Of a DNA stretch of 64,000 nt, positions 4,297-64,000 are shown piece after piece; the stretch's first letter is position 1; every line of letters starts with the position of its first letter. This DNA comes from Deltaproteobacteria bacterium. Its GTDB lineage: Bacteria > Desulfobacterota > Syntrophia > Syntrophales > JACQWR01. The notes under the pieces are model-generated. The model was not told the DNA's origin. It saw only the letters and a list, made by a program, of their open reading frames with translations, and made no database searches. Location of the stretch: contig JACQWR010000011.1 of the NCBI GenBank assembly GCA_016209105.1, positions 132,216 through 196,215 of the forward strand, in the 5' to 3' direction. Position numbers and translations under genes: made by a program.

Positions 4297-4354
4297 CGTT
4301 ACCGATTTATTGGAACACCCCTTGGGGGTAAGGTAGGAATCAGATACAAGAAGA

Positions 4355-4382
4355 GGGGAACCGGGCAGTAGGCCGGTTCCCC
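4355..4382. terminator. Bidirectional rho-independent terminator between convergent fdhB and the minus-strand operon
   Basis: Perfect 10-bp stem GGGGAACCGG / CCGGTTCCCC with an 8-nt loop. Flanked by an A/G-rich run on the left and tcttctctgtt on the right. Confidence 0.6.
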
Positions 4383-4408
4383 TCTTCTCTGTTGATAACG
4401 GAAGGTAT

Positions 4409-5137
4409 TTACTGCCCTCCGGGGCAGCGGGCGGGAAGAAATAGTTCTCTAATTTGTGCGGCAGGCAGCACCGCACCAAAGGAAGCGGCCATTCGGTTCA
4501 GCATCTCCTTGCATATGGGCTCGGTTCCGCTTGCAACCCCGTCGCTCACGACAATGATATCAAAATCCCGGTTGAAGGCATCCCGTGCTGTTGACTCCAC
4601 ACAAACATCAGCCGCGACACCGGTAAGGATAAGGGTGTCAATCCCCCAGCAGCGCAGACGCATCTCCAGGTCCGTCTGGTAAAAGGCGCTGGTGCGTCTT
4701 TTGTAAACCGTATGGGCGCCCGGACCGGGCTCCAGGATATCAACAATTTCCGCACCCCAGGTCCCGCGCAGGGCATTATAGTCGTGGCCGCGGGCCTCTC
4801 CCGTAATCCGCACCCGCTCCGGCAGTATCCGATGAAAGCGCCAGTGGTTGTCGCTGCCGTCAGGCTCACGGACCGTAACCACGTAGATGACTTTCACCTC
4901 CTCCGGGAGACTTCGCAGCAGTTGCTGGATGTTGGGAATGATAAGCTGCAGGGGGCCGCAGGGACGGCCCTGCCGGTGATGATAACCGCCGGGAGAAACA
5001 AAATCGTTCTGCATGTCAATAATCAGGAGCGCCGAGCGCCTCGGATCCAAGACGATATCCTGTTGTTCCTTCTGTTTGTTTCTTTTCGGAGCAATGGCGC
5101 CCCGTTTTATTTCCGGACGCACCGGTTCTCCCCCCAC
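4409..5137 (-). CDS. Isochorismatase-family (cysteine) hydrolase
   Basis: Family triad context: LLIIDMQNDF (Asp), YKRRTSAF (Lys), LTGVAADVCVEST (Cys). Last gene of the operon. GTG start 3 nt after the UbiD stop; the exact start is uncertain. Confidence 0.8.
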   Translation of the reverse strand: MGGEPVRPEIKRGAIAPKRNKQKEQQDIVLDPRRSALLIIDMQNDFVSPGGYHHRQGRPCGPLQLIIPNIQQLLRSLPEEVKVIYVVTVREPDGSDNHWRFHRILPERVRITGEARGHDYNALRGTWGAEIVDILEPGPGAHTVYKRRTSAFYQTDLEMRLRCWGIDTLILTGVAADVCVESTARDAFNRDFDIIVVSDGVASGTEPICKEMLNRMAASFGAVLPAAQIRELFLPARCPGGQ

Positions 5138-49240: not shown

Positions 49241-49774
49241 CTACTCCCCCGTCGCCAGAAGTCTGAAGATCAGGGCATCGTACAGCGAAATCTTCGCAAT
49301 CACCACAAAAACCAGGTAAATCGTCGCCCATAATCCGAACGCGGTAGACACGGACGCCACCCAGCCGTCATCCTGGCTGCGCATAAATATAACGGTGAAA
49401 ACGGGAATGGTGATCAAAAATCCGAAGAGGTAAACCATCAGAACATAAAGCATCACCCACCCGGCAGCCTTCAGCAGAGCGATGGCCTCCTCGCGATCCG
49501 TTCTCTTCACCTTCTTTTCTTCCATCACCTCCACATGGATCTTATCCATGGTCTTTTGAAACATCTCGTCTTCTATCGAAATAACCTTCTTCTTCTTTTT
49601 CCCCCGTAAAACGGAAACAAGCTGAATGGAAGCCATGATGATACAGGGGAAGGCGATCACCAACGGCATGAGCCGCGCCTTGGTATTGTACTGGTAGGCC
49701 CCGATGATCACTGCCAGAAAAAAACAAATCAAAACCGAGCCGAAAAAAATTTCCATTTTATCTTTCGTCTTCAT
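49241..49774 (-). CDS. tctB: Tripartite tricarboxylate transporter small membrane subunit TctB, with an unusually long charged loop
   Basis: Four TM segments. 4-nt overlap with tctA. Lys/Glu-rich insert (RGKKKKKVISIEDEMFQKTMDKIHVEVMEEKKVKRTDREE). Confidence 0.7.
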   Translation of the reverse strand: MKTKDKMEIFFGSVLICFFLAVIIGAYQYNTKARLMPLVIAFPCIIMASIQLVSVLRGKKKKKVISIEDEMFQKTMDKIHVEVMEEKKVKRTDREEAIALLKAAGWVMLYVLMVYLFGFLITIPVFTVIFMRSQDDGWVASVSTAFGLWATIYLVFVVIAKISLYDALIFRLLATGE

Positions 49775-51270
49775 GCTGCACCTCCCGTCTGAGCCGCTTC
49801 TCTCTGCAGTCTTCTCGTTCGCCTCATCTGGAAGAATATCGTTACGACAATAATCGAGAACAGCAGCAGGGTGAGGGGGCGAAAGAGGAATTTAAGCCCG
49901 AAGAGGTTCATGGAAAGATGGAGATAGTTTTCCGTCAAGTCCCCCAGCACCGCGCCCAGCACAAAAGGCGCGCGGGGATATTTAAAAACTTTGAAGCCGT
50001 ATCCGAAGGCGCCGATAATGCAGGTGGCGATAATATCCCCGAAGTTGTTGGTGGCGAGAAACGCGCCGATAAAAGCGAAAACGAAAATGAACGGCACGAT
50101 CATCGAGACCTTGACAAAGGTAAGTTTGGCCAGTGGCATGACAAAGAGGAGGCACAGGATGACCCCGACGACATTGGCAAGGGCCAGAACCCAGACCATG
50201 CTGAAGACGACGTCGAGATGTTTGGTGAGCATCTCCTGCCCCGGCACGATCCCGATGATCATGAAGGCGCCGAGCAGAATGGCCATCGCTCCGGACGAGG
50301 GAACGCCGAAACACACCGTCGGAATAAGCCCGCCCCCTTCCTTGGAGTTATTGGCGCTCTCCGGGGCCAGGACGCCCTCTACCGCCCCCTTGCCGAATCG
50401 GGATGGATCTTTGGCGGTCTGCACGGCATGGCCGTAGCAGATAAATGCGGACGCTTCGCCGCCCAGTCCCGGGACCATGCCGATCATGCTGCCGATGACG
50501 CTGCAACGCAGCGTCAGGTTCCAATGGATGAAGGTATCCTTGATGCCCTGCCAAACCCCTGAGCCCGCGACCTGGTCTGCCTTGGTATGGGCAATGGAGC
50601 CGCCTTCCCTAATCATCGTTATTATTTCGGGAATGGCGAAGATGCCGATAGTGATATTCACGATATTCAAGCCGTCAAACAGATAGAGCTGATTGAAGGC
50701 AAAACGGACAACGCCGGTCTGGGGATCCATGCCGACGAAAGCCAGGGTCATGCCGACACCGCCGGCGACCAGGCCCTTCGTGAGGGAGCCGCCGCTCATC
50801 AGGGAGATGAAGGTGATGCCGACAAGCGTCATCATGAAAAATTCCGGCGGGCCGAAGGCCAGAACGACCGGCCTCACCACGGGAATGGTGAGGGCCATGA
50901 AGACCGCACCCACGACCCCGCCGAAACCGGAGGAGGCAAGCGCGGCGCCCAGCGCCCTTCCCGCCTCCCCCTTCTGCGCCATGGGATAGCCGTCAATAAC
51001 GGTTGCCGCCGCAGGACCATCGGGGGTATTGAAAAGAATTGCAGGAACGGGACTCCCCGTATGGACCACCGCATGCATGCCCAAAAGAAAGGCAAAGGCC
51101 ACGGCAGGCTCCATCCCGAAGCAAAAGGGTATCATTATGGCCAGCCCGACCTTTCCGCCGACCCCCGGAAGAATGCCGAGAATGAGGCCGATGGGGATGG
51201 TCAGCGCCAGAATCCCGAACACCTTCCAGTTCAGTATCAGTAATAAACCGCCATATAAAGCTTCTAACAT
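49771..51270 (-). CDS. tctA: Tripartite tricarboxylate transporter large permease TctA
   Basis: 499-aa polytopic permease with typical TctA sequence (GILPGVGG, GVPSSGAMAILLGA). Confidence 0.9.
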   Translation of the reverse strand: MLEALYGGLLLILNWKVFGILALTIPIGLILGILPGVGGKVGLAIMIPFCFGMEPAVAFAFLLGMHAVVHTGSPVPAILFNTPDGPAAATVIDGYPMAQKGEAGRALGAALASSGFGGVVGAVFMALTIPVVRPVVLAFGPPEFFMMTLVGITFISLMSGGSLTKGLVAGGVGMTLAFVGMDPQTGVVRFAFNQLYLFDGLNIVNITIGIFAIPEIITMIREGGSIAHTKADQVAGSGVWQGIKDTFIHWNLTLRCSVIGSMIGMVPGLGGEASAFICYGHAVQTAKDPSRFGKGAVEGVLAPESANNSKEGGGLIPTVCFGVPSSGAMAILLGAFMIIGIVPGQEMLTKHLDVVFSMVWVLALANVVGVILCLLFVMPLAKLTFVKVSMIVPFIFVFAFIGAFLATNNFGDIIATCIIGAFGYGFKVFKYPRAPFVLGAVLGDLTENYLHLSMNLFGLKFLFRPLTLLLFSIIVVTIFFQMRRTRRLQREAAQTGGAA

Positions 51271-51333
51271 AAATATTCACCTCCCTTTCTCCGTCTGATC
51301 TTGTATCGGGATCACCGATACAAGGATCAAACA

Positions 51334-51789
51334 TCAAATCTTTCCGACCCGTGAATAATCTCGAAAATAAAATAATAAGTCCGTGTCTTTCATAGGAGGG
51401 CTCCGCGCTCCCTGAGGCGTTTTTTCCCGATGGGGCCCTTCCATCAGCGGCAGGAGCGCCTTTCCCGCGTTGAATTCAAAACGACTGACCTCCGCAACCC
51501 TTGATATTCCCGAGAAGATGCACTGAGCGGACAGACGCCTTGCATGGACCTTGGTCTTCCTGAAGCCCGAGGTGACGGCAAACAGCACCCTCTTGGCAAC
51601 GGAGGTACGAAAAAGGTGCGTTCCTTCTTCCCGGACCATCCCGACAGGACAATGCTCCCGCCCCGCTCCTCCGGACACAGCGGTCCCTATGAAAGAGGAA
51701 TTTGCGGCATCCGCTAAGAGATTTGGTAAAACTGCCGCGATGGCAAGCAGGAGCAAAACCAACGATATCCGAGCACTAGGGAAACGCAT
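51334..51789 (-). CDS. Hypothetical secreted protein
   Basis: ORF with a signal-peptide-like N-terminus (ISLVLLLLAIAAVLPNLLADA) and a GGGAGAA RBS. No family recognised, and the coding status is uncertain. Confidence 0.35.
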   Translation of the reverse strand: MRFPSARISLVLLLLAIAAVLPNLLADAANSSFIGTAVSGGAGREHCPVGMVREEGTHLFRTSVAKRVLFAVTSGFRKTKVHARRLSAQCIFSGISRVAEVSRFEFNAGKALLPLMEGPHREKTPQGARSPPMKDTDLLFYFRDYSRVGKI

Positions 51790-51893
51790 TTCTCATTTCT
51801 CCCGAAGGGGATCAAAACAGCATACTCGTGAAGCTTTCCCCCGCTTGTTTTTGCAAGACGGAGGGCCGGCTATCCCTTAAGCAGGATCGCCAA

Positions 51894-52448
51894 TCACTTC
51901 CCCTGGTAACCCGGGGCGTTTTCCACCTGTTCCCACCAGTCAAACCCCAACGCTTTCACCAGGCGGCTTGTTGCCGTCACAAAACGGGCCGGATTGGCCG
52001 GACCGGCGTTGAAATGCTGATGGGTGGTATACGGCGGGATATACACAAAATCCCCTTCCTCCCACTCGTACCTCTTGGGCTCCTTCTCCCAATCCCAATG
52101 ATACTTAACATCGAGCGTGAAGGAAGCGTCCCAGTGCAGATCGTAGCCCTTGCCCTCCAGGACGTAAAAAAGCTCTTCCGCCATGTGGCGGTGTTTCCCC
52201 GAACTGCTTCCCGGCGCTATCTCCTGCATGTACATGTCGAGACAGCATTCCACCGTATCCGTCTCTTCGTTCACCAAATGCTTGATCCGGCCCTGCGGCG
52301 AGTTTTCCCAGGGCATTTCCGCCGGGCTCACGGAACGGGCTTTCTTATCATAGTCTTCGCGAAACTTTTTCGACCGCTCCAGCATCCGCCGGTAGTAATC
52401 CGTCTGCAGGGTTCCCTGGGCGGCTACAATTTTTTCTTCGTACGGCAT
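51894..52448 (-). CDS. Monocupin protein, same family as the bicupin halves
   Basis: Canonical cupin motif 1 GKHRHMAEELFYVLEGKG (HxH...E) and motif 2 YIPPYTTHQHFN. Confidence 0.7.
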   Translation of the reverse strand: MPYEEKIVAAQGTLQTDYYRRMLERSKKFREDYDKKARSVSPAEMPWENSPQGRIKHLVNEETDTVECCLDMYMQEIAPGSSSGKHRHMAEELFYVLEGKGYDLHWDASFTLDVKYHWDWEKEPKRYEWEEGDFVYIPPYTTHQHFNAGPANPARFVTATSRLVKALGFDWWEQVENAPGYQGK

Positions 52449-52469
52449 AATAAACCTCCTTGCGGTAAA

Positions 52470-53009
52470 CTATGGTTCTGGATGAAAATGCTCAAACCCG
52501 GGCTTCGCTTCCTTCGGCGGATATTCGACCGTCCTCTGGAACACCAGATGGAAAAAGAGGAACGTGGGCTTAGCCTTGAAGATAACGTAGCGCGCCGGTT
52601 TATCGGGCTTGTCGTTAAAGTGCTGATGGACGCACATATTTTCCACGATACAGACGTCTCCGGACTTCCAGGGATACTTTACTCCATCGTGCACGTCGTA
52701 TCCCTCCCCTTCCAGGATATAGAACACGGCGCTGTTCATATGCCCATGCCTCTGGCCGAAGCTGCCGGGCGCAAGCACGTCAATATGGGCCTCGACGGCC
52801 TGGGTCACCATCGTCCTCTGGGGATTCACGACATTCTTGCCGAATTTCGTCGGCCCTCCCTTCCAGTTCATCTCCTTGCTCTTGTATACCCGGGGTTGTT
52901 TGAGGAGATTTTGGTATACCTCCCCATACTTCCCGATCACTGCCCGGACAAACGTCCGGTCCTTCTGCCAACGGTCCCACTTTTGGTCAGTTTCTTCTTC
53001 TGGTTTCAT
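52470..53009 (-). CDS. Monocupin protein, partner of 51894..52448
   Basis: Motif 1 GQRHGHMNSAVFYILEGEG (HxH, acidic ligand position not conserved) and motif 2 VENMCVHQHFN. Confidence 0.7.
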   Translation of the reverse strand: MKPEEETDQKWDRWQKDRTFVRAVIGKYGEVYQNLLKQPRVYKSKEMNWKGGPTKFGKNVVNPQRTMVTQAVEAHIDVLAPGSFGQRHGHMNSAVFYILEGEGYDVHDGVKYPWKSGDVCIVENMCVHQHFNDKPDKPARYVIFKAKPTFLFFHLVFQRTVEYPPKEAKPGFEHFHPEP

Positions 53010-53034
53010 GGCAACCTCCTCTTGTTTAATTCGG

Positions 53035-53550
53035 TTATATCTCTATACCAAAACCGTTCGTTATTATCTCAGCCATCAAGCCGGCCAAGGGGGGAAGGAT
53101 CAAGCAGGAAATAATCCTGATTTTTACGAAACGCACACCCATCAGGGGAATCTCATACGCAAGCACCCGATGAACGGCAAAGACCGACCAGGCGGTAACG
53201 AAAGAAATCAAAGCCGGAACCGCCGCGCCGGTTTTTAAAAAAACATAGACAATGGGGAAACAGATAACCGGTCCGCCGGGAGTGAGTCCTCCCACCAAGG
53301 AACCGATCACGATGCCCCTCAGTCCCGCATCCTTCCCCAGCCACTCAGCCACCAGCTCCGTAGGAACAATCTGCGCGAAGAAGCCGGAAACCAGAACGGC
53401 CAAAACAATTTTAGGGACGGTACTAAAGGCCTGTTTCCAGGCAATCTGCAACCCCTGACGGAAGCGTCCATCATGACGTAAATAGGCCATGACGCCCAGT
53501 ATCAGCGCGAGGATCCATATGACCAGCGACGCATAATCCAGAACGTTCAC
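53035..53550 (-). CDS. Half-size permease (DUF318/ArsP-like predicted permease family), second half-gene
   Basis: TM-rich with the GGLTPGGPVICFP motif. GTG start overlaps the upstream TGA (AGGAGGTGA), with the RBS inside the upstream gene. Confidence 0.7.
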   Translation of the reverse strand: MNVLDYASLVIWILALILGVMAYLRHDGRFRQGLQIAWKQAFSTVPKIVLAVLVSGFFAQIVPTELVAEWLGKDAGLRGIVIGSLVGGLTPGGPVICFPIVYVFLKTGAAVPALISFVTAWSVFAVHRVLAYEIPLMGVRFVKIRIISCLILPPLAGLMAEIITNGFGIEI

Positions 53551-54110
53551 CTCCTCTCTGTTAATTTTCCGTCCAGATAAGTTACGAGCTTCTGAGCAAG
53601 GATTCCGGCCAACAAGGGAAAGAAGAGCGAGACGGACACCCGCAATACGGTAAAATTGACGCCCATGAGCGGCAGTTCCCAAATCAGGATACGCTGCATG
53701 CCCATGAGTTCCCAGGAAATCAGGTACGCAATCAGGGTGCTGATCGCCGCGCCCATGGAGGAAAGTGCTGAAATCAGGGGGAAAGAAACGATCGGGCCGC
53801 CCGGCGTAAGCATTCCGGCGAAAGTGGCTATCACGAGCCCCCTGAACCCGGCCCGCTCTCCGATCAATTGCATTACCACTTCCCGGGGTAAGAGAACCTG
53901 GACGAATCCGGCCAGAATAATTGCTCCCGCAATTTTGGGAAGTATCTGCATCATCATGACGAGCGAATCGTCTAATCCCTTATCAAAAACAGCCTCCCCC
54001 CTGCTATAACAGATAGCGGCAGTAATAATCACCAGTGCGGCAAAAATAACGAGGGAAGGGTCAATAACAGGCTTCCTTCTTTTTTCTGCCGGTTGCGCCA
54101 TGCTGATCAA
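53547..54110 (-). CDS. Half-size permease (DUF318/ArsP-like predicted permease family), first half-gene
   Basis: TM-rich with the GMLTPGGPIVSFP motif. Paralogous to the downstream half. The start is ambiguous: TTG at 54110 or ATG at 54101. Confidence 0.7.
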   Translation of the reverse strand: MISMAQPAEKRRKPVIDPSLVIFAALVIITAAICYSRGEAVFDKGLDDSLVMMMQILPKIAGAIILAGFVQVLLPREVVMQLIGERAGFRGLVIATFAGMLTPGGPIVSFPLISALSSMGAAISTLIAYLISWELMGMQRILIWELPLMGVNFTVLRVSVSLFFPLLAGILAQKLVTYLDGKLTERR

Positions 54111-54169
54111 ACCATCCTGTCACATGAGGGATGAAAACCGCCATTGCCCTGTTTCAGGCCATAGGAGGA

Positions 54170-54288
54170 TTGAAGCTTTCCATGAACACGCTGCGTAAGA
54201 ATCTCCGATTCTTAAGGAACGAGAACGTTCGGCATTCGCTCGCTTACCGCGCGGCAAGCCGCGGGGAATGCGCTCGCTGCCGAATTGA
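54170..54288. repeat. Intergenic repeat family A, full-length copy
   Basis: ttgaagctttcc...aagaatctccgattcttaaggaac...attcgctcgcttaccgcgcggcaagccgcggggaatgcgctcgctgccgaattga. Confidence 0.75.
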
Positions 54289-54391
54289 CACCCTTTGCCA
54301 TGTCCAGCTTCCGGAAAAGAAGAAATAGCGGCGGTAGGACAAGGCCGCTATTTCTTCTTCAGTATGTTTTCACTGTTTGAGAGCCGCTCTC

Positions 54392-55855
54392 TTACTTGCT
54401 CCCGAAGCCTTTCAGCAAATACCCGTATTTTTCCCGGGCCTTCCTTGCCCGTGCGGGGCTCGGCATGTTGACCAGGGGGAACTGATCGCGCCAGTCATAG
54501 GGACGCGTTGCGTCAATGATGGCACGGGAGTTGACCAGTTTTCCCTTATGCTTGTCATCGGGGTGGATCCGGGGATCAAGCGCCGTTGACCAGGTATTGT
54601 GGATAATATCAATGGATGTCGCCGGATCGGAACGAGTTACCATGGCCCACATCAGCTCATCAAGATTGGAGACATCAATATCGTCGTCCACGACGATGAC
54701 GTACTTGCCGAGATAGGCGCCCACGTGACACTGCGAGGCTACGTGTCCCACCTGGGTGGCGTGGCCGCCGTAGCGCTGATTGATGGCGATGGCGAGGAGC
54801 AGCCTCGAACTGCCGACCTCATGGGCCCAGACGGACTTGATGCCGACAATTCCCGCCGCCTCCATCTGCTGCCTCAAGAGCGCCGAGCGCATGACGGCCC
54901 GGTAGCGCGCAATCTCATCGGGCGGACGGTTCGGGGGACAACCCAGGATAATGGGATCGTTCCGGTGATAAACCGCCTTCACATCCAGGAACGGCTCTTC
55001 CCGCACATCACTGGCATAATAACCCGTCCATTCGCCGAAGGGGCCTTCCTTCCGCTTCTTCTTGGGGTCAACGAAGCCCTCGAATACGATCTCGGCATTG
55101 GCGGGAATGGGAAGCCCCGTCACCTTTCCTTTAATAACCTGGTATGGTTTTCCCCGTAAGCCTCCGGCGAAATCGTATTCGCTGATCCCGTAGGGAACTT
55201 CATTGCACGCCATCAGGTAGAGGAGCGGATCGCCGCCCACCACAATAGCCAGCGGCATGGGTTTGCCGCTCTTAAAGTACTTGTCCCGGTGGACGCGGCC
55301 GTGTTTTCCCGGCGAGATATAGAAGGCGACGGTTTTCTTGTCATGCACCATAACGCGGTAGGTGCCGAGGTTTACCCAGCCCTCATCGGGATCCTGGGTT
55401 ATGTCGTAACTCCCCGTACCGATGTAGCGTCCCCCGTCGTTCTCATGCCAAAAAGGAGTCGGAAAAGAGAGAACATTAATATCCTTGCCCATTTTGACAT
55501 TTTCCGTTACCGGCCCTTTTTCCACGACTTTGTAGGGGATAGGTTTCGATTCCTGAAACGCCTTGAGAAAGGCGTTGGAAAGTTCGACGCGGGAAAGGTC
55601 CGTGGGGAAGCCAAGCGTCATGTTCATCCGCTTTGCACCGAAGAAATTGACCAGCACCCGGTGTCCCTTCGGGTACCCCGGAATCTTGTCAAACAGTGCG
55701 GCGGGAGCGGGATCGGAGGCGTGAAGAAGTTCCGTCGCCATGCCGATATCTTCCTGCCAGCTCGCCTTTTCCACATCCTTCACCTCGCCCAGTTTGCGGG
55801 CCTGATCCAGCCAGCCTCGCAAATCATCGTAAAGAAATTTCTGTTTCATCTGCAT
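54392..55855 (-). CDS. UbiD-family (prFMN-dependent) reversible decarboxylase, second copy
   Basis: 487 aa, collinear with 5141..6571 (DGGRYIGTG, DPDEGWVNLGTYR, EGPFGEWTGYY). Confidence 0.9.
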   Translation of the reverse strand: MQMKQKFLYDDLRGWLDQARKLGEVKDVEKASWQEDIGMATELLHASDPAPAALFDKIPGYPKGHRVLVNFFGAKRMNMTLGFPTDLSRVELSNAFLKAFQESKPIPYKVVEKGPVTENVKMGKDINVLSFPTPFWHENDGGRYIGTGSYDITQDPDEGWVNLGTYRVMVHDKKTVAFYISPGKHGRVHRDKYFKSGKPMPLAIVVGGDPLLYLMACNEVPYGISEYDFAGGLRGKPYQVIKGKVTGLPIPANAEIVFEGFVDPKKKRKEGPFGEWTGYYASDVREEPFLDVKAVYHRNDPIILGCPPNRPPDEIARYRAVMRSALLRQQMEAAGIVGIKSVWAHEVGSSRLLLAIAINQRYGGHATQVGHVASQCHVGAYLGKYVIVVDDDIDVSNLDELMWAMVTRSDPATSIDIIHNTWSTALDPRIHPDDKHKGKLVNSRAIIDATRPYDWRDQFPLVNMPSPARARKAREKYGYLLKGFGSK

Positions 55856-55905
55856 TCTCCTTCGCTATTGAATTTTGTTTCCAATTTTGTTTCCTCTTAC
55901 GCTTG

Positions 55906-56607
55906 TCAATCCCAGAAAATACCCCGCTTTCGTCCTTTTTCCATGAAGTATGCCCAGCTTTTCTGAATGCTTGATGGCTTGAAGGTGCTGGCCGCCGCCC
56001 TTTTCACTTCCTCTTCGGGAAGGGCAATCGGTTCTCCCACAGCGGATGCTTCCACCACCAGCCGGGCGTTTTCCTCCAGGTGCAGAGCGGCTAAAAAAAC
56101 AGCTTCCACATATGCCTCGGCTACCACCGCCCCATGGCCTTTCATCACCACCGCCCTCCCCATACCGAGGATATCGGCCATGCGGTTCGCCTGCGTGAAG
56201 TTCACGATCTTTTCCGAATCGGGATAGAGGGGCACCGCCTGCCCGAAGATACTGCCGTGGTGACAAACCGTAACCAGTTCCCTGCCCACGATGCTCGGGA
56301 TGATCGCATAGTGCGGGTGCATATGAATAACGCTGTTCACATCCGCCCGTTTCTGATACACAGCGGCATGGATCGGTGTTTCCTCAGGTGTTTTTCCCGT
56401 ACCCGTTACATTCTTCCCGCTTAAATCAACCTCGATCATATCATCGGGCCGCACTTCGCTTCTTGCCGTGCTGCCCGGATGAATAAAAAAGGTCTTTCCA
56501 CCGGGGACGCGACCGGAAATGTGACCGGAGAAATCAATCAACCCCACCATCTCGAGCATACGGCAGGCACGGGCCAGCGTGCCTTTCAGTTCCTTTTCCT
56601 GTTCCAT
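55906..56607 (-). CDS. Class II aldolase/adducin-family protein
   Basis: Metal-binding His pattern (IHAAVY..., VIHMHPHYA) in a 233-aa protein typical of the family. Confidence 0.8.
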   Translation of the reverse strand: MEQEKELKGTLARACRMLEMVGLIDFSGHISGRVPGGKTFFIHPGSTARSEVRPDDMIEVDLSGKNVTGTGKTPEETPIHAAVYQKRADVNSVIHMHPHYAIIPSIVGRELVTVCHHGSIFGQAVPLYPDSEKIVNFTQANRMADILGMGRAVVMKGHGAVVAEAYVEAVFLAALHLEENARLVVEASAVGEPIALPEEEVKRAAASTFKPSSIQKSWAYFMEKGRKRGIFWD

Positions 56608-57049
56608 ACTCTCCTCGCATGAAATCCCGACTCCGGCAGCGCACGCTTGCCCCGCAGTTCCCTGCGGAGCGCTTCAGATGACCGCTCTACCACTTAAGAT
56701 ACACCTTTCCCCCGGCGCTGCTTCTTCCCTGTTCCTGTTTTTGTAACGCTGAACTGTTCGGAAAAACGAATCGCTGCGAAGTGCTCGTTACCAAGACGTG
56801 ATGTTGCGGTTACACCTACCGCACTCTGCCGTGGAGCGGATTATCCGTCAGAATACGTTATCCAGCTGATGTATCAAGATTCCACATCTTTTGAAGCGTC
56901 CGGCGACTCCTACTTACGTGACCGCTTATAATATCCTCCGTGTTTTGTCAAACACTTTTGACGTCTCTGGAAAGCCGAAAATAGAAGAGAATTTCCGCTG
57001 CCAGCAGGCCAACATACCATAGCCGTTCACCCGGTACAAGCTCACAAAC

Positions 57050-57832
57050 CTACCGCTGGCAGGAAGGGCAAAAATAGGCGCCCCGGCCGGCCAATTTAGC
57101 CCGCAGGATATCCGCCCGACAGCGACGGCAGGGTTCGCCCGCACGGGCGTACGCCTGGAGATGATTCTGGTACTCCCCCTCATTGCCGAACAAGTCACGC
57201 CAATCCGATACCGTGGTGCCCCGACAGGCAACGGCTTTTCTGATGATTGATACAGCGGCCTTTTTCACTTCCCGCCATTCGGCGGTGGTGAGACTGCCCG
57301 TTTCCCGCCGGGGATTTATTGCTGCCGCATGCAGGATTTCGCAGGCATAAATATTCCCGATGCCGGCAATCACCCGTTGATCCATAAGGAATGATTTCAC
57401 GGAAAGCCGTTTATTCTCCGCCGCCTCTCTGAGCCGGGTTAATGAAAAATCACGGAGCGGATCCATCGCAACCGGAGCCGACCGGACCGGTGTTGCTTGT
57501 ACGCTCACGGTGGCAAAGCGTCGGGGATCCACCAGGACAAGTTCCCCGGCGGAAAACAATACCATGAAGCGACTGTACGGAAGAAGTAGGGGGGAAGCTC
57601 CCCGCCAGCGGAGGCCGCCCGTCATCCGCAGGTGAATCGCCAGCGTCGCCGCACCGTCAAGCTCTATTGCCACGCTCTTGCCGCGGCGAAATACGGAAGA
57701 GACCTTCCGGCCCGCAAGCGGCGGAACAACACCGAGCCTGGAATCCATGACCCTGCTCTCCAGGATTTCCTCACCCGCTATCGTGCGCCGCAGTTGCAGA
57801 CAGAGTGTTTCTACTTCGGGAAGTTCCGGCAC
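57050..57832 (-). CDS. mutM: Formamidopyrimidine-DNA glycosylase
   Basis: PELPEVE at the N-terminus and a C-terminal zinc finger CRRC...CPSCQ. The GTG start at 57832 behind GAAGGAGG gives the obligatory N-terminal Met-Pro; the ORF track start at 57871 would bury the catalytic Pro. Confidence 0.9.
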   Translation of the reverse strand: MPELPEVETLCLQLRRTIAGEEILESRVMDSRLGVVPPLAGRKVSSVFRRGKSVAIELDGAATLAIHLRMTGGLRWRGASPLLLPYSRFMVLFSAGELVLVDPRRFATVSVQATPVRSAPVAMDPLRDFSLTRLREAAENKRLSVKSFLMDQRVIAGIGNIYACEILHAAAINPRRETGSLTTAEWREVKKAAVSIIRKAVACRGTTVSDWRDLFGNEGEYQNHLQAYARAGEPCRRCRADILRAKLAGRGAYFCPSCQR

Positions 57833-58158
57833 CCGGCCTCCTTCGTTCCTGCGCTGTTCCTCGTTGTTCACCGCCGCCGACCGCAGGATGGCGGCAGCAC
57901 AACGGCGATCTTCCCGCCGTCAAAAAGACTCGAACTGCGGGACACGTTTTCGGTCAAGAAAAGTTTTTTGCACTTTTTTTCATTTTTTGTAAAAAAAATA
58001 TTGACATAGATGTGCAAGAAGTGTAAAGCGAAAAAAAGTGCGGCAGCGAACGTAACTGCTCGTTCCCGCTTAAGGAACCAGGCACGACGGCACCCGAGAA
58101 AAAACGGCTTGGCACAGCCTGTAAAATGAGCGTAGTAAAAATCGCAAGGAGGCGCAAG

Positions 58159-59472
58159 ATGGAAAGTGAATCTCTTTTCAATGAGGAGGTGGAACCTCCA
58201 GGTAGTTTGACCGGTATTATCGGTCCTGAACATCAAACCCCCAATAGTTTCCGCCCCTATAAGAAGCCTTCCCATACGTCCCTGTATCTGGCCAAGCCGG
58301 ACCGCGGCGTATTTCCTTTCAAAGACAGCCCGAGGGCAAAAGCCTTCCGTAAACGTTTTTTCCCGGATATCTCCCGCATCGAGTGGTACGACTGGCACTG
58401 GCAGTTCCGCAACCGAATCCGCGATGTTGATATCCTGTCCCAGATGATTGAACTTTCGGAAAATGAGCACAACGCCCTTGTTTACCACTCAGGGAAAATC
58501 CCCCTATCCATAACCCCCTACTATGCGAGTCTGCTGACCGGCAATGACTGTTCCCGGCCGTTGCGCCGCACGGTAGTGCCTGTCGTTGATGAGTGTTTCC
58601 GCATGGAAAACGAGGAAGACGATCCCCTCGGGGAAGAGCACGACAGCCCCGTGCCGGGGATCGTGCACCGTTATCCGGACCGGGTCCTTTTCCTGGTAAC
58701 CGGCCTCTGTTCAACCTACTGCCGTTACTGCACTCGCTCACGCATGGTAGGACGGGACGGCGAGCAGGGGTTTAGCTCCGACCAGTGGGAACAGGCGCTG
58801 GAATATATCTCCGACCGGCCGGAAATACGGGATGTCCTTCTTTCAGGCGGTGATCCGCTCACCCTTTCCGACGAGCAATTGGAATGGTTGTTGTTTCGAT
58901 TAAGAAAAATACCCCACGTGGAACTTTTGCGCATCGGCACCAAGGCGCCCGTGGTAATGCCCCAGCGTATTACCCCTGCGCTTACGCACATGCTCAAGCG
59001 CTATCATCCCCTCTGGATGAGCATTCACGTGACCCATCCGGACGAGTTGACACCGGAAATGAGTCAGGCCTGTATGCGTCTGGCAGACGCAGGCATTCCC
59101 CTCGGCAGCCAGACCGTCTTGCTTACGGGGATCAACGATGACGTGGAGACCATGAAACAACTCATGCAGGGATTGCTCCGGATCCGGGTAAAACCATACT
59201 ATCTCTATCAGTGCGACCCCATCCCCGGTTCGTCGCACTTCAGAACCTCGGTGTCTAAGGGACTGGAAATCATCCAGGGACTGCGCGGGTACACGACCGG
59301 CTATGCGGTTCCCACCTATGTTATAGATGCGCCGGGCGGCGGCGGCAAAATCCCTCTCCTCCCGGAATATTTGGTGGGGCGGGACGGCGATGATCTCGTC
59401 CTCAGAAACTATGAGGGACAGATCTATCGCTATCCCGACCGTGAGACGCCGACAAACAGCGATGTGCACTGA
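58159..59472 (+). CDS. kamA: Lysine 2,3-aminomutase (radical SAM, KamA/AblA type)
   Basis: CSTYCRYCTRS radical-SAM cluster and KamA-family sequence throughout (SGGDPL, YLYQCD, PTYVIDAPGGGGK). Preferred start is ATG at 58159 behind AAGGAGG. Confidence 0.85.
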   Translation: MESESLFNEEVEPPGSLTGIIGPEHQTPNSFRPYKKPSHTSLYLAKPDRGVFPFKDSPRAKAFRKRFFPDISRIEWYDWHWQFRNRIRDVDILSQMIELSENEHNALVYHSGKIPLSITPYYASLLTGNDCSRPLRRTVVPVVDECFRMENEEDDPLGEEHDSPVPGIVHRYPDRVLFLVTGLCSTYCRYCTRSRMVGRDGEQGFSSDQWEQALEYISDRPEIRDVLLSGGDPLTLSDEQLEWLLFRLRKIPHVELLRIGTKAPVVMPQRITPALTHMLKRYHPLWMSIHVTHPDELTPEMSQACMRLADAGIPLGSQTVLLTGINDDVETMKQLMQGLLRIRVKPYYLYQCDPIPGSSHFRTSVSKGLEIIQGLRGYTTGYAVPTYVIDAPGGGGKIPLLPEYLVGRDGDDLVLRNYEGQIYRYPDRETPTNSDVH

Positions 59473-59592
59473 CCAGGAAGTCTGGTTTTCCGGCAGGTAA
59501 GTGAGTCCTCCGCGCAGAGGCGGGACTTGAGAGATTTGTTTCCGGATCGGAGAGGGCGGAAAGAACCGCAGGACAAGGGGGAAGAAAACTTT

Positions 59593-60591
59593 TTGAAGAT
59601 CGGAATTACCTACGACCTTCGTGACGATTATCTCGCAGAAGGATACGGCGAGGAGGAAACGGCCGAATTCGACCGTCCCGACACGATTGATGCCATTGAA
59701 CAGGCGCTTCGGGATTCCGGTTATGAAACCGATCGTATCGGCAATATCAAGTCCCTGGTAAAGCGGCTGGCGGCCGGCCAGTGCTGGGACCTGGTTTTTA
59801 ACATCGCCGAAGGACTGGCGGGATTCGCCCGTGAGGCCCAGGTGCCCGCCCTGCTCGACGCCTACGGCATCCCCTATACCTTCTCCGACCCCCTTCTTCT
59901 CTCACTTGCCCTGCACAAAGGCTTTACCAAACACATCGTACGCGCTCTGGGCATACCCACGCCGGATTTTGCCGTTGTGGAGAATGCCGCCGACGCGGAA
60001 AAGGTGAAACTGCCGTTTCCGCTCTTCGCAAAACCCATCGCCGAGGGAACCGGCAAAGGCGTCACCCCCGCCTCCAAGATCGCCTCCCAATCCCAACTGG
60101 TCTACGTATGCGAGCAACTGCTCGCCGCCTACCGGCAACCCGTGCTGGTGGAAACGTTTCTCCCCGGACGGGAGTTCACGGTAGGGATTGTGGGGACGGG
60201 AAAAGATGCCGGCACCGTGGGCGTAGCGGAGGTCTACCTGAAGGAAAACGCCGAACTCGACGCCTATTCGTATATGAACAAGGAGCGGTGCGAAGAACTC
60301 GTGGAATACCGCAAGGCCACGGACGGAGTGGCGGCGCGGGCGAAGGAAATAGCCCTGGCCGCTTGGCAGGGGCTGGGATGCAGGGATGCGGGCCGGGTTG
60401 ATCTGCGGACCGACGCGCAGGGAATGCCGAAATTCCTGGAAATAAACCCCCTGGCAGGCCTGCACCCGGAGCATTCCGACCTTCCCATCATCTGCACGTT
60501 AAACGACATTCCCTACCGCGAGCTCATCGCCATAATCGTTGATTCCGCGCTGAAACGACTTCCTCATCATCACCGTGGTGGAACGCCATGA
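59593..60591 (+). CDS. ATP-grasp ligase, D-alanine--D-alanine ligase-like family
   Basis: Ddl-like N-terminal and ATP-grasp domains (KPIAEGTGKGV, EVNPLAGL-type C-terminus). The start is uncertain: TTG at 59593 (MKIGITYDL) or the ORF track start 59527. Confidence 0.75.
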   Translation: MKIGITYDLRDDYLAEGYGEEETAEFDRPDTIDAIEQALRDSGYETDRIGNIKSLVKRLAAGQCWDLVFNIAEGLAGFAREAQVPALLDAYGIPYTFSDPLLLSLALHKGFTKHIVRALGIPTPDFAVVENAADAEKVKLPFPLFAKPIAEGTGKGVTPASKIASQSQLVYVCEQLLAAYRQPVLVETFLPGREFTVGIVGTGKDAGTVGVAEVYLKENAELDAYSYMNKERCEELVEYRKATDGVAARAKEIALAAWQGLGCRDAGRVDLRTDAQGMPKFLEINPLAGLHPEHSDLPIICTLNDIPYRELIAIIVDSALKRLPHHHRGGTP

Positions 60592-61583
60592 AAGCGGTAT
60601 TGCTGCACGGACAGGTCTTGGAGGGAGCCGGATGGGATGAACAAGATGTGTTCATCCAGGCTGCCGCCGTTTCCCAGGCGCTTTCCGACCTCGGCTATGA
60701 ACCGGTTATTATGCCCCTCTCCCTGAATATCGCCGAGACAGTAGATGCCCTGCTCTCCTTGGAACCGGCGTTTGTCTTCAATCTCGTGGAAGCAATAAAC
60801 GGCAAGGGCAACCTGATTCACTTCTCGCCGGCCATTCTGGATTCCTTGTGCATACCGTATACGGGCTCGCAAACGGCGGCCATCTTTCTCACCTCACACA
60901 AAGTTACCGCTAAATCGTTCCTCCATGCCCAGGGGATCGCAACGCCGGCATGGTTCCTTCCCGATGCCTGCCCCGCCTCACCCGTAAAAGAAGGCAGGTA
61001 CATCATCAAATCGCTCTGGGAACACGCATCCATAGGCCTTGATGAAGGTTCCGTCGTCTTCACCGACGACAATTCTTTTCTGGACGGGAAAATGAACGCT
61101 TTCAGGAGAAGTTCCGGCGGAGAGTGCTTCGCCGAGGCCTTTATCGAGGGTCGGGAAATCAACGTTTCCCTGCTGGGGGGTGGGGAGGGGCATGAGGTCC
61201 TGCCCCCGGCCGAGATCATATTTGAAGATTACCCGCCGGAAAAACTGAGAGTGCTCGGCTACCGCGCCAAGTGGGTTGAAGATTCCTTCGAGTACCAACA
61301 TACGCCCCGCACCTTCGAGTTTCCGGACAAAGACGGTCGGCTGCTCAAGCAATTGGCGGACATTGCAACTCGGTGCTGGCAGGTATTCAAGCTGCGGGGC
61401 TATGCCCGTGTTGATTTCCGTGTGGATCAGCGGGGAACGCCGTGGGTGCTGGAAGTAAACGCAAACCCCTGCCTGTCCCCGGAGGGCGGCTTCACCGCCG
61501 CGGCAAAGCAGGCGGGGCTGAGCTACAACGACACAATCGAACGGATCATCCGCGCCGTTCCGGGAATGCCTCCCTATGCCTGA
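60588..61583 (+). CDS. ATP-grasp ligase, D-alanine--D-alanine ligase-like family, second paralog
   Basis: ATGA overlap with the upstream gene. ATP-grasp motifs (YIIKSLWEHASIG, RVDFRVD, VLEVNANPCLSPEGG). Confidence 0.75.
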   Translation: MKAVLLHGQVLEGAGWDEQDVFIQAAAVSQALSDLGYEPVIMPLSLNIAETVDALLSLEPAFVFNLVEAINGKGNLIHFSPAILDSLCIPYTGSQTAAIFLTSHKVTAKSFLHAQGIATPAWFLPDACPASPVKEGRYIIKSLWEHASIGLDEGSVVFTDDNSFLDGKMNAFRRSSGGECFAEAFIEGREINVSLLGGGEGHEVLPPAEIIFEDYPPEKLRVLGYRAKWVEDSFEYQHTPRTFEFPDKDGRLLKQLADIATRCWQVFKLRGYARVDFRVDQRGTPWVLEVNANPCLSPEGGFTAAAKQAGLSYNDTIERIIRAVPGMPPYA

Positions 61584-62100
61584 AAAACCACTTCTGAAAT
61601 CGCGACCGCCCGAAGACGGCACGCTGACCTTTCGCCAGGAGGTCCTGCCGTCCGATAAGGGACAGATACGCACCATTGTTGAATCCACGGGTTTTTTCTC
61701 CCGCATCGAAACGGACATCGCCGTGGAGTTGGTCGAAGAAAATCTTGCCAGAGGCAGCGCTGACAGTGGGTACTACTTTCTGTTTGCTGAGGAGAACGGG
61801 GAAGTTGTCGGTTATGCCTGCTTCGGCCCCATACTCGGCACCCAGATGAGCTACGACCTTTACTGGATCGCCGTTCATCCCCGTTTTCATCGCCGTGGTA
61901 TCGGCGCGGAATTGTTGGCAAGGAGCGAGAAGCTGATTTTTCACCAGGGAGGACGCCGCGTTTATATTGATACTTCCTCGCGGCCCCAGTATGAAGCGAC
62001 CAGGGCATTTTACCGCGCCCGGGGATACCGGGAAGAGGCCTTCCTGCAGGATTTTTATGCCGCCGGAGACGGCAAAACCATTTATACCAAGGCCCTTTGA
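61576..62100 (+). CDS. GNAT-family N-acetyltransferase
   Basis: 8-nt overlap with the upstream gene. Acetyl-CoA motif RRGIGAELLARSE. Confidence 0.75.
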   Translation: MPEKPLLKSRPPEDGTLTFRQEVLPSDKGQIRTIVESTGFFSRIETDIAVELVEENLARGSADSGYYFLFAEENGEVVGYACFGPILGTQMSYDLYWIAVHPRFHRRGIGAELLARSEKLIFHQGGRRVYIDTSSRPQYEATRAFYRARGYREEAFLQDFYAAGDGKTIYTKAL

Positions 62101-62267
62101 CTTTAAATCACCGAGAGCACCTGCCCGGATAATCAATCCCGAAACCTATTGCTTTTTTAACGATGATCTGTTAGAAGACGCGCGGCTTCTTAACTCGGCA
62201 CAATGCCGATCAGGGCAGTTCTGCAAGCAGCCATTACTGCCAACTGGTTGTTAAAGAAATCATTTTT

Positions 62268-62393
62268 GTAGGCTGTTCAAAAATGCCCAGATGCAAGGCC
62301 CCTGAAATACTTCGCCATGAGGCGTACTTGTCCGTACGTTGAATGGAGAAGTATGAGGGAAACACAGGAGATGGGCGTTTTTCAACAGCCTAG
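62268..62393. repeat. Intergenic repeat family B
   Basis: gtaggctgttcaaaaatgcccagatgcaaggcccctgaaatacttcgccatgaggcgtac...gggcgtttttcaacagcctag. Near-identical in organisation to 9719..9843. Confidence 0.7.
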
Positions 62394-62416
62394 CCTACTG
62401 ACGGGAGGGCATCGTC

Positions 62417-63037
62417 ATGCGACTCATACCCAGAGAAGAGAAGTTTTTCGATCTTTTTGAAGAACTGGCCGAAAAAATCGAGGAAGGCTCAAAGTTGTTT
62501 CTCGCAATGGTGAAAGAATACCAATATGCCGCAACAATGATCGCCCGACTTAAAGAAATCGAACATGAGGCGGATATAATCACGCACAGAACCTACGAGA
62601 AGATGCACAAGACCTTCCTCACCCCCCTGGACCGTGAAGACATCTATGACCTGGTAAACAAGATGGACAGCATCCTCGACATGATCGAGGCCTCCGCCAC
62701 GCGGTTGAATCTCTATAAAGTCAAAAAACCAGCGGCGGCGATTATTGAACAGGCGGAGATTCTCTGCAAGGCCATCGCCAAGGTAAAAACCATTATCCAC
62801 GCCATGCGGAACCTGAAAAACAAGAAGATGATCCTGGATGCCTGCGTGGAAATCAACACCCTGGAAAACGACGGAGACTTAGTCTTACGTACGACGATTG
62901 CCGGGTTGTTTGAAAATGAAAAGGATGTCTTTGAGCTCATCAAGTGGAAGGAAATATTCGAACGGCTGGAAGAAGCCATTGACGTCTGTGAGGACGTTTC
63001 CAATATTGTGGAAGGCATTGTCTTAAAACATGGTTGA
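62417..63037 (+). CDS. DUF47 / PhoU-like protein (TIGR00153 type) paired with a PiT transporter
   Basis: MRLIPREEKFFDLFEE... is the typical N-terminus of this family. Overlaps the start of the downstream PiT gene. Confidence 0.8.
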   Translation: MRLIPREEKFFDLFEELAEKIEEGSKLFLAMVKEYQYAATMIARLKEIEHEADIITHRTYEKMHKTFLTPLDREDIYDLVNKMDSILDMIEASATRLNLYKVKKPAAAIIEQAEILCKAIAKVKTIIHAMRNLKNKKMILDACVEINTLENDGDLVLRTTIAGLFENEKDVFELIKWKEIFERLEEAIDVCEDVSNIVEGIVLKHG

Positions 63038-64000
63038 TTCCGTCACATTCGTCATCTTCATCTGCCTCGTGGCGCTGGTCTTCGATTTCATCAACGGCTT
63101 CCACGACTCGGCAAATTCCATTTCAACCGTGGTTTCCACCCGCGTTTTGTCCCCGCGTTACGCCGTCATCTGGGCGGCTTTTTTTAACTTCATCGCCGCG
63201 TTTTTCATCGGGACGCAGGTGGCCAAGACGATCGGAACGGGCATTATCCACCCCGACATTGTGGAAAATCACCTGATTCTTGCCGCCCTGAGCGGCGCCA
63301 TCATCTGGAACCTCATCACCTGGTACTTCGGCCTGCCCAGCAGTTCCTCCCATGCACTGATCGGCGGCCTCATCGGCGTGGGCCTGGTGAAAGGGGGGAC
63401 GGACGTACTCGTTGTCAAGGGCATCACCAAGACCACGCTTTTTATCGTTCTCTCGCCCACGATCGGCCTTTTGCTCGGCCTGGCGCTGATGGTCCTGGTC
63501 CTCAATCTGAGCCGCAACTCGAACATGACAAAATCAGACAAGCTATTCCGGAAGCTGCAGCTTTTCTCCGCGGCCATATACAGCCTCGGACACGGCATGA
63601 ACGACGCGCAGAAAACCATGGGAATCATCGCCATCGTTCTCTACAGCCGGGGGCTTCTGGGACCGACCTTTTATATTCCTTTCTGGATCGTTCTTCTCTG
63701 CCACGCCGTTATTGCCCTGGGAACGCTGACCGGCGGCTGGCGCATCGTCAAGACCATGGGCACCAAGATCACCAAGCTCCGCCCCATGGGGGGGTTCTGC
63801 GCCGAAACAGCGGCAGCAATTACCATCATCGGGGCATCTTTGGGCGGCATCCCCGTCAGCACGACTCACACCATCACCGGCGCCATCGTCGGGGTGGGGG
63901 CAACGAAACGGCTCACCGCCGTGCGCTGGGGGGTTGCGGGAACCATCCTCTGGGCGTGGATCCTGACGATACCGGTATCGGCCTTTCTATCAGCATCCAT
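63030..64000 (+). CDS. pit: Inorganic phosphate transporter, PiT family (3-prime end beyond the window)
   Basis: Own translation from ATG at 63030: MVDSVTFVIFICLVALVFDFINGFHDSANSISTVVSTR... with a second GHGMNDAQKTMG signature. The frame is open to the window end and is not in the supplied ORF track. Confidence 0.85.
   Translation, partial: MVDSVTFVIFICLVALVFDFINGFHDSANSISTVVSTRVLSPRYAVIWAAFFNFIAAFFIGTQVAKTIGTGIIHPDIVENHLILAALSGAIIWNLITWYFGLPSSSSHALIGGLIGVGLVKGGTDVLVVKGITKTTLFIVLSPTIGLLLGLALMVLVLNLSRNSNMTKSDKLFRKLQLFSAAIYSLGHGMNDAQKTMGIIAIVLYSRGLLGPTFYIPFWIVLLCHAVIALGTLTGGWRIVKTMGTKITKLRPMGGFCAETAAAITIIGASLGGIPVSTTHTITGAIVGVGATKRLTAVRWGVAGTILWAWILTIPVSAFLSAS

Follow-up and report, generated by a model that had tools for sequence, protein, structure and literature searches.

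What would tie a lysine 2,3-aminomutase to two ligases that resemble D-alanine–D-alanine ligase (Ddl) and to a small acetyltransferase, and what could the four enzymes make together? This question is raised by a row of four plus-strand genes in a 64,000-nucleotide stretch of contig JACQWR010000011.1 (positions 132,216 to 196,215, assembly GCA_016209105.1) from a Syntrophales bacterium deposited as Deltaproteobacteria bacterium; the whole of this stretch is referred to here as the window. The genes encode, in order, the aminomutase (KamA), two ATP-grasp ligases of the Ddl fold, designated AG1 and AG2, and an N-acetyltransferase of the GNAT family. On the reading preferred here, which is given about an even chance of being correct, the four genes make up a single, horizontally mobile biosynthetic module, a self-contained pathway in which lysine would be converted to beta-lysine, extended by one or two ATP-dependent amide bonds and then N-acetylated. 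A preliminary description of this DNA had placed four plus-strand genes at 58159-62100, and both the listing of open reading frames (ORFs) and the family matches agree with it. The features of the locus are as follows.

58147..58153, plus strand: Shine-Dalgarno sequence AAGGAGG, read from the sequence, 5 nt 5' of the kamA ATG
58159..59472, plus strand: KamA/AblA-type lysine 2,3-aminomutase (radical SAM, pyridoxal phosphate), 437 aa, predicted from Pfam, NCBIfam and the alignment with structure 2A5H
59473..59592, plus strand: kamA-AG1 intergenic spacer, where terminator, promoter and RNA-structure scans were all null
59593..60591, plus strand: AG1, predicted first Ddl-fold ATP-grasp ligase, 332 aa from TTG 59593 (Dala_Dala_lig_C)
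60588..61583, plus strand: AG2, predicted second Ddl-fold ATP-grasp ligase, 331 aa (Dala_Dala_lig_C), its start overlapping the AG1 stop (ATGA)
61576..62100, plus strand: predicted small GNAT N-acetyltransferase, 174 aa (Acetyltransf_1), its start overlapping the AG2 stop by 8 nt

The ORF listing gives these genes, all on the plus strand, as 58126..59472 (448 aa), 59527..60591 (354 aa), 60588..61583 (331 aa) and 61576..62100 (174 aa). For kamA, 58159 is a better start than 58126 because of the Shine-Dalgarno sequence and the public gene calls of 437 aa, which were made independently on four public contigs that carry an identical locus. The true start of AG1 is probably TTG 59593, after AAGGGGGAAG, since the alignments of its homologues begin at residue 23 of the mechanical ORF; public gene callers retain 59527 and hence a product of 354 aa. 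The two gene overlaps seen in the preliminary description (60588/60591 and 61576/61583) can be read straight from the sequence. In ...GCC ATG A.. the AG2 ATG occupies 60588-60590 and the AG1 TGA 60589-60591, while the GNAT ATG occupies 61576-61578 and the AG2 TGA 61581-61583, and the last three genes are translationally coupled in the window by these overlaps. Between kamA and AG1 there is a gap of 120 nt (54 nt with the 59527 start) that contains no terminator- or promoter-like site and folds no better than shuffled sequence (z = −0.54), and the wider region 57000-63000 has no Rfam match above noise and no convincing promoter or terminator. Because the spacer has none of these features, co-transcription of kamA and AG1 is likely, and the four genes are likely to be transcribed together.

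What KamA makes can be predicted from its residues. In lysine 2,3-aminomutase (LAM), R134 binds the carboxylate of lysine, D293 and D330 bind its epsilon-ammonium group and K337 binds pyridoxal phosphate (PLP), and glutamate 2,3-aminomutase has Lys and Asn in place of Asp293 and Asp330. When KamA is aligned with the LAM structure of Clostridium subterminale (2A5H; 455 bits, E 1.9e-135), its CSTYCRYC falls on C125/C129/C132, so that the radical SAM CxxxCxxC motif is kept, its YQCD and VIDAPGGGGK fall on D293 and D330, and both the PLP-binding Lys337 and the carboxylate-binding Arg134 are conserved. KamA matches the Pfam families LAM_C and Radical_SAM and passes the NCBIfam family model TIGR00238 (357 bits, cut-off 199). 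Its best NCBIfam model is AblA [TIGR03820, 490.7 bits, which is below the equivalog threshold of 525.4], and it lies well under the cut-offs for glutamate 2,3-aminomutase (434.9 bits), arginine 2,3-aminomutase (407.2 bits) and EpmB (258.3 bits). Lysine is the substrate expected because AblA is the best model and all of the lysine-binding residues of the Clostridium enzyme are kept, and KamA is strongly predicted to turn L-lysine into beta-lysine. Membership of the LAM/AblA type, as opposed to the EpmB type, makes the (3S) isomer the expected product. KamA lacks the Zn site and the C-terminal multimerisation domain of Clostridium LAM (Zn cysteines C268 and C375/C377/C380): Asp takes the place of C268, and the chain stops near LAM residue 379 (window 59400-59472). 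It also has an N-terminal extension of ~65 aa (window 58159-58360) that has no Pfam match and is conserved only in the Syntrophales-type homologues.

The two ligases are annotated in public records as D-alanine--D-alanine ligase, and it has to be asked whether they are such enzymes. Both match Dala_Dala_lig_C (AG1 82 bits, AG2 70 bits), and with the best Ddl models they reach 142.9 and 111.6 bits, respectively, against a cut-off of 243, which is about two-fold short. A structure search by Foldseek with the AlphaFold model of AG2 (pLDDT 89.7) returned Ddl only, the top matches having a TM-score of ~0.75 and 20-25% identity. AG1 and AG2 are 24-30% identical to each other in cross-matches, and their sequences mark them as old sister paralogues that split from Ddl before their own duplication. 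Homologues of AG1 are 67-98% identical to it, and AG2 is 98% identical to MBI4633145.1, from a metagenome-assembled genome (MAG) labelled 'Deltaproteobacteria bacterium'.

Residues were mapped by a three-way alignment of the AG1 family, the AG2 family and E. coli DdlB, whose reference sequence has a numbering that agrees with the E15, H63 and R255 motifs. K97, K144, E180, E187, K215, R255, D257, E270 and N272 (DdlB numbering) are kept in both families, as is an acidic residue at or beside the position of E15. Both ligases look catalytically competent because all of the ATP, Mg and transition-state residues of DdlB are kept. Positions that differ are S150, which is T in AG1 and A in AG2, Y216, which is a gap in AG1 and W in AG2, and S281/L282, which is Gly-Gly in AG2; AG1 keeps S281 and has an invariant Asp in place of L282. 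Substitutions common to AG1 and AG2 and absent from Ddl are an acid at I60 and at R202 and an Arg at P186 and at M259. The ligases share with the Ddl/VanA family the fold, the ATP, Mg2+ and transition-state residues and presumably the acyl-phosphate mechanism. They differ from it in their low identity, in scoring far under all Ddl, Van and equivalog cut-offs, in a changed substrate pocket, in the absence of a cell-wall context (mur/fts neighbours were not found in the window or at related loci) and in occurring as a paralogue pair with KamA and the GNAT. Hence AG1 and AG2 look like active ligases that are not Ddl.

How firmly the four genes belong together was assessed in two samples. The genome sample consists of 80 loci from species-representative genomes, obtained by alignment of AG2 homologues, in which the four proteins were located by tblastn, and the independent metagenome sample consists of 80 loci from metagenome contigs that were searched with distant representatives as seeds (41-44% identity to the window protein). 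The order KamA-AG1-AG2-GNAT is present in 56/80 genome loci. Of the others, seven have KamA-AG1-AG2 and no GNAT despite room on the contig, four have KamA-AG1-AG2 with the contig ending soon after AG2, three have KamA-AG2-GNAT without AG1, three have AG2-GNAT alone and seven are cut on the upstream side by a contig end. The same four-gene order occurs in 38/80 metagenome loci, and most of the remaining loci in both samples are cut by contig ends. The preliminary description had left it to a neighbourhood analysis whether the ATP-grasp clade is generally linked to KamA or whether the ligase-GNAT trio is widespread without it. KamA lies upstream of the AG2 homologue in 70/73 evaluable genome loci and 48/51 evaluable metagenome loci (~95%), leaving only ~5% of loci without it, and the linkage of KamA to the ligases is not by chance. 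The titles of the carrier records, under about eight phylum labels, include Syntrophales/Smithella, Desulfobacterales, Desulfobulbaceae, Syntrophobacterales, Planctomycetota/Phycisphaerae, Spirochaetota, Aminicenantes, Sumerlaeota and Krumholzibacteriia, with a few bins labelled otherwise. Among the seven genome loci without a GNAT (L001, L003, L012, L014, L027, L048 and L059) are the three whose AG2 is most identical to that of the window, and in L001, L003 and L012 a DUF47 gene directly follows AG2. The GNAT is dispensable in some close relatives and AG1 is absent in some lineages.

Gene fusions provide a second line of evidence. In a HMMER scan of 1.84 billion representatives, 1,113 clusters (50% identity) match AG2 at E<=1e-30. 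The 150 best of these 1,113 representatives comprise 26 AG2-GNAT fusions and 12 AG1-AG2 fusions (P0005 and P0095 are further examples). At the level of sequence, such fusions are direct Rosetta-stone evidence that AG1, AG2 and the GNAT work together, and they place the ligases in a single pathway with the acetyltransferase. ORF clustering and comparison of the flanks revealed no other flanking gene that is conserved across phyla, which makes the module self-contained. The sequences themselves thus indicate that aminomutase, ligases and acetyltransferase are inherited, fused and translationally coupled as a unit.

Another possibility is that kamA is simply the first step of lysine fermentation or catabolism, with neighbours that are unrelated to it. 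KamA does open the lysine fermentation pathway of anaerobes, and the carriers of the cluster are anaerobes. However, kamDE, kdd, kce and kal were not found in the neighbourhood in the window or among the conserved neighbours, and ATP-consuming ligases are ill-suited to a catabolic route, so this explanation is regarded as highly improbable.

The GNAT, too, departs from the known AblA-AblB system. It matches Acetyltransf_1 (59.5 bits) and is of the RimI/YpeA type, the nearest NCBIfam model being RimI (46 bits, cut-off 86), and it has no match to the AblB model (TIGR03827) at E<=0.001. The preliminary description had suggested a comparison with AblB, and the outcome is that the GNAT is not AblB-like, its nearest relatives being RimI, YpeA and the structure 2R7H. 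The latter is the closest solved structure (149.5 bits, E 7.7e-43, full-length alignment, ~50% identity), shares its family with the GNAT of the window and is a structural-genomics entry described as a 'putative D-alanine N-acetyltransferase of GNAT family', presumably from a Desulfovibrio. A functional study of it was not found in the literature, and its name appears to be an annotation derived from context.

Two known systems use acetylation in a comparable manner. AblA-AblB, of methanogens and some bacteria, likewise pairs a LAM-type aminomutase, which KamA resembles in scoring near the AblA model, with an acetyltransferase and yields an acetylated beta-lysine derivative. It is a two-gene arrangement, however, whereas here two ATP-grasp ligases lie between the two genes and are obligatorily linked to them (~95% of loci), the 174-aa GNAT is of the RimI/YpeA type and not AblB, and KamA is just under the AblA cut-off and has no Zn site or C-terminal domain. 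The second system, NAGGN synthesis, is similar in logic and not in sequence: in NAGGN synthesis Ngg is a bifunctional GNAT and ATP-grasp enzyme that operates with the amidotransferase AsnO. There an ATP-grasp ligase coupled or fused to a GNAT gives an N-acetylated dipeptide solute, and the comparison with NAGGN drawn in the preliminary description gains from the overlap of AG2 and GNAT in the window and from the 26/150 AG2-GNAT fusions. The ligases here are nevertheless of the Ddl fold, the order in the fusions is ligase then GNAT, and the beta-lysine block would come from a dedicated radical SAM enzyme. No cluster protein matches Ngg or AsnO in NCBIfam, and there is no amidotransferase among the conserved neighbours.

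Could the locus nevertheless be a plain AblA/AblB pathway to N-epsilon-acetyl-beta-lysine, with ordinary D-Ala-D-Ala ligases lying between the two genes by chance? KamA is nearly AblA by score (490.7 versus 525.4), a GNAT lies downstream, the public annotation of the ligases is the one such a view would predict, and an earlier comparative study files the LAM gene of Syntrophus as clustered with ablB. In this study [PMC2821294 (Biol Direct 2010), an EF-P paper, in the text on Fig. 2A], Syntrophus aciditrophicus is stated to have yjeK clustered with efp and ablA clustered with 'ablB'. A locus from a MAG of the same species (L041) has the same arrangement as the window cluster, and the 'ablA/ablB' pair is probably this four-gene cluster with its two ligases overlooked. 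Against the plain pathway, the ligases score 143 and 112 bits versus the Ddl cut-off of 243, their substrate residues S150, Y216 and S281/L282 are changed, fusions join them to each other and to the GNAT, they accompany KamA in several phyla and have no mur/fts neighbours, and the GNAT has no match to the AblB model. On model scores, substrate residues, fusions, linkage and the non-AblB GNAT, this candidate is effectively excluded and is left with hardly any weight.

Is the acetylated product a small molecule or a macromolecule? An indication comes from an accessory gene that is absent from the window and is found between AG2 and the GNAT in 30/160 loci (~19%; e.g., L015 9036-11285; also L040, L051, L055, L062, L078, L080 and 14 metagenome loci). 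Its product of ~600 aa combines a divergent N-terminal GNAT domain with a Hist_deacetyl domain; in-frame fusion to the terminal GNAT is common and gives GNAT-HDAC-GNAT proteins of ~750 aa. The deacetylase domain best matches acetylpolyamine amidohydrolases (6PHR, 258 bits; 9GKZ, 240 bits; 3Q9B, 219 bits), the matches to 6PHR and 3Q9B being full-length; the accessory protein differs from these enzymes in its additional N-terminal GNAT domain and its frequent fusion to the terminal GNAT. Because the accessory deacetylase is of the acetylpolyamine-amidohydrolase type, a small N-acetylated amine is favoured over a macromolecular target, and it suggests that the acetylated amine terminates an aliphatic chain, like that of N-epsilon-acetyl-beta-lysine, and that acetylation is reversible.

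A macromolecular target would mean that a protein (EF-P or a ribosomal protein, for instance) receives beta-lysine from the ligases independently of EpmA, and that the GNAT acetylates the same target. ATP-grasp enzymes such as RimK do modify proteins, and the nearest families of the GNAT are RimI-type protein N-acetyltransferases. In the EpmA/EpmB system of EF-P, too, a KamA-family aminomutase makes beta-lysine that is then joined by an amide bond. That system differs in that EpmB is of another subfamily, EpmA is a paralogue of a class II aminoacyl-tRNA synthetase (LysRS) and not an ATP-grasp enzyme, and efp is not among the conserved neighbours of this cluster; the loci examined showed no EpmA-like gene. 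One deltaproteobacterial lineage (L047 6549-7109, L043 5602-6216 and L105 5942-6499) has an AG2-GNAT pair, with no KamA or AG1 within 8 kb, downstream of a gene for EF-P whose tip loop reads KPGKGQA, and with tgt downstream. The distance of the pair from efp, which is 0.9-1.8 kb at these loci, would fit modification of EF-P, but efp occurs in this single lineage only among the 160 loci, and the three EF-P sequences are 92-100% identical and count as one observation. In addition, KamA reaches 258.3 bits with EpmB versus a cut-off of 369.3, S. aciditrophicus has a separate yjeK clustered with efp besides its LAM-type gene (PMC2821294), the cluster contains no conserved ORF for a target or carrier, and the accessory deacetylase is of the acetylpolyamine type. 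Protein modification, of which EpmA-independent transfer of beta-lysine to EF-P would be the most radical form of the proposal, is accordingly judged to be quite unlikely.

Other genes enter the cluster more rarely. A CxxCxxCC/YkgJ-like protein (PF03692, 26.7 bits) of 160-225 aa is encoded between KamA and AG1 in ~12 loci (L064 1615-2127, L040, L059, L062, L078, L066 and six metagenome loci), usually in clusters that also have the HDAC gene; neither it nor the accessory HDAC protein matches an NCBIfam family. On a 6.56-Mb metagenomic contig (L085), a gene for a YitT_membrane/DUF2179 protein (7266-8168) separates AG2 from the HDAC gene within the cluster, and two MFS transporters (235-2897) lie divergently upstream of kamA. 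At L076 a 315-aa ORF (3985-4932), 181 nt 5' of kamA, has the ATP-grasp-like motif FVMKPSQTTGGGIGV and no Pfam match, so that this bin may have a third ligase of divergent sequence. Sporadic ORFs between KamA and AG1 (L029 6469-6825 and L013 6013-6612), with a membrane or signal segment at the N terminus and very acidic tails, are not conserved at other loci and may be spurious. Across the 160 loci, the gaps within the cluster contain no conserved small ORF, carrier protein or precursor peptide.

From these data the preferred pathway of ligation and acetylation can be outlined in three steps. KamA would first turn L-lysine into beta-lysine, with the 3S isomer expected. AG1 and AG2, to judge from their fold and intact catalytic residues, would each use ATP to form an acyl-phosphate and then one amide bond, giving a dipeptide, tripeptide or amide that contains beta-lysine. 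Finally, the GNAT would acetylate a free amine of this product and so remove a positive charge. AG2 is probably the core ligase, because AG2-GNAT pairs and fusions without AG1 and KamA-AG2-GNAT clusters exist and AG2-GNAT is the tightest pair; it would handle beta-lysine or pass the product to the GNAT, and AG1 would add a further unit in most lineages. In about one fifth of clusters, the acetylpolyamine-amidohydrolase-type enzyme with its own GNAT-like domain could reverse the acetylation. The product is most likely a cytoplasmic small molecule, that is, a compatible solute, a charge-buffering solute or a polyamine-like compound, and by analogy with AblAB and NAGGN a role as osmolyte is plausible. 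The preliminary description had already proposed ligation of beta-lysine followed by acetylation; its single KamA-linked pathway and the small-molecule type are supported by the linkage, the fusions and the deacetylase, whereas the units ligated, the order of the steps and the osmolyte role are not supported here.

Two intact ATP-grasp sites, sometimes in one polypeptide, could also be used repeatedly. AG1 and AG2 would then alternate to build a beta-lysine oligomer or polymer in the manner of cyanophycin, one site extending the backbone and the other adding the side chain, with the GNAT capping or priming the chain and the deacetylase mobilising it. AG1 is weakly similar to the ATP-grasp region of cyanophycin synthetase (E ~3e-9), and the module needs no partner genes. 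Both ligases, however, have the compact Ddl architecture (~330 aa) and no extra N or M domains as in CphA, no cyanophycinase-like hydrolase is linked to them, and the accessory enzyme resembles deacetylases of small molecules (acetylpolyamines), which leaves the polymer an unlikely product.

An exported bioactive peptide of beta-lysine, which would act as an antimetabolite or signal and for which acetylation and deacetylation would serve self-protection and activation, is viewed with similar doubt. KamA-family aminomutases and ATP-grasp ligases occur in antibiotic pathways, a pair of acetylation and deacetylation is a common logic of self-resistance, and one large contig has the YitT-type membrane protein in the cluster and the two adjoining MFS transporters. 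Transporters are not conserved neighbours, however, and with at least 1,113 clusters at 50% identity the family is broader than a niche secondary metabolite would be. In many Syntrophales genomes the cluster also has a fixed syntenic position (fpg ... DUF47-PiT) that looks like core physiology. Both this constant location in Syntrophales chromosomes and the family's breadth speak for core physiology and against a niche antibiotic.

Several points weigh against the proposed pathway of beta-lysine ligation and acetylation. The seven close relatives that have no GNAT mean that acetylation is not obligatory, and the families nearest to the GNAT (RimI, YpeA and the NatB type) are mostly N-alpha acetyltransferases that act on peptides or proteins, which is not a neat fit to N-epsilon acetylation. 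The accessory deacetylase also has a strong match (212 bits) to HDAC6, which deacetylates proteins. The partner substrates of AG1 and AG2 are not readable from sequence, the DdlB mapping giving changed positions and gained acids only. Many carriers come from freshwater, peat or sludge, where a role as osmolyte is not obvious, and a salt-related regulator or riboswitch was not found in the Rfam scan of 57000-63000. Metabolite, expression or enzymatic data on any member of the family were not found in the literature.

The preliminary description could not match the four genes to a described pathway, and a full-text literature search likewise found no description of a cluster of KamA, two ATP-grasp ligases and a GNAT. 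A Pelobacter genome paper describes a plain ablA/ablB pair, and the main text of a fitness paper on D. alaskensis G20 mentions none of these genes. The enzymes come from known families and their logic is like that of AblAB and NAGGN; the product is probably new.

The genes on either side are unrelated to the cluster. Directly downstream (window 62417-64000) is a pair encoding DUF47 (PhoU_div) and a PiT/PHO4 phosphate transporter, which is found in 20/80 genome loci; only in the Syntrophales-type loci are this pair and fpg syntenic. On the upstream side, and divergent, lie fpg and, on the minus strand at 49241-56607, genes for TctB, TctA, a 151-aa ORF without a Pfam match, two cupins, a permease pair, a UbiD-family decarboxylase (487 aa) and a class II aldolase, which together look like an uptake and decarboxylation module for an aromatic or organic acid. 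The permease pair (53035-54110, minus strand) consists of tandem half-size ArsP_1 'predicted permease' ORFs of 215 and 187 aa with a listed overlap of 136 nt. These could represent a permease that is split or heterodimeric; alternatively, the downstream ORF (53035-53682), which has a listed TTG start inside the upstream ORF, may have been called too long.

Few roles of beta-lysine are known in bacteria and archaea, and in this cluster its synthesis is joined by two dedicated amide-bond ligases. It is present in at least ~1,100 sequence clusters (50% identity) from several phyla of environmentally important anaerobes, including syntrophs, sulfate reducers and Planctomycetota, and it has been masked by the public label 'D-alanine--D-alanine ligase' and, apparently, by that of 'ablA/ablB' in earlier comparative work. 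As a self-contained module of four genes it is directly testable by heterologous expression. Identification of the product would add a new beta-amino-acid metabolite, correct a systematic mis-annotation and make available for biocatalysis two new ATP-grasp ligases that are probably specific for a beta-amino or diamino acid. With a confidence somewhat short of even, it is proposed that the module makes a new class of metabolite that is widespread in anaerobes, a beta-lysine peptide, amide or short oligomer whose charge would be switched by reversible N-acetylation and which, in Desulfobacterota, Planctomycetota and Spirochaetota, may play the part of a polyamine-like cation or solute.

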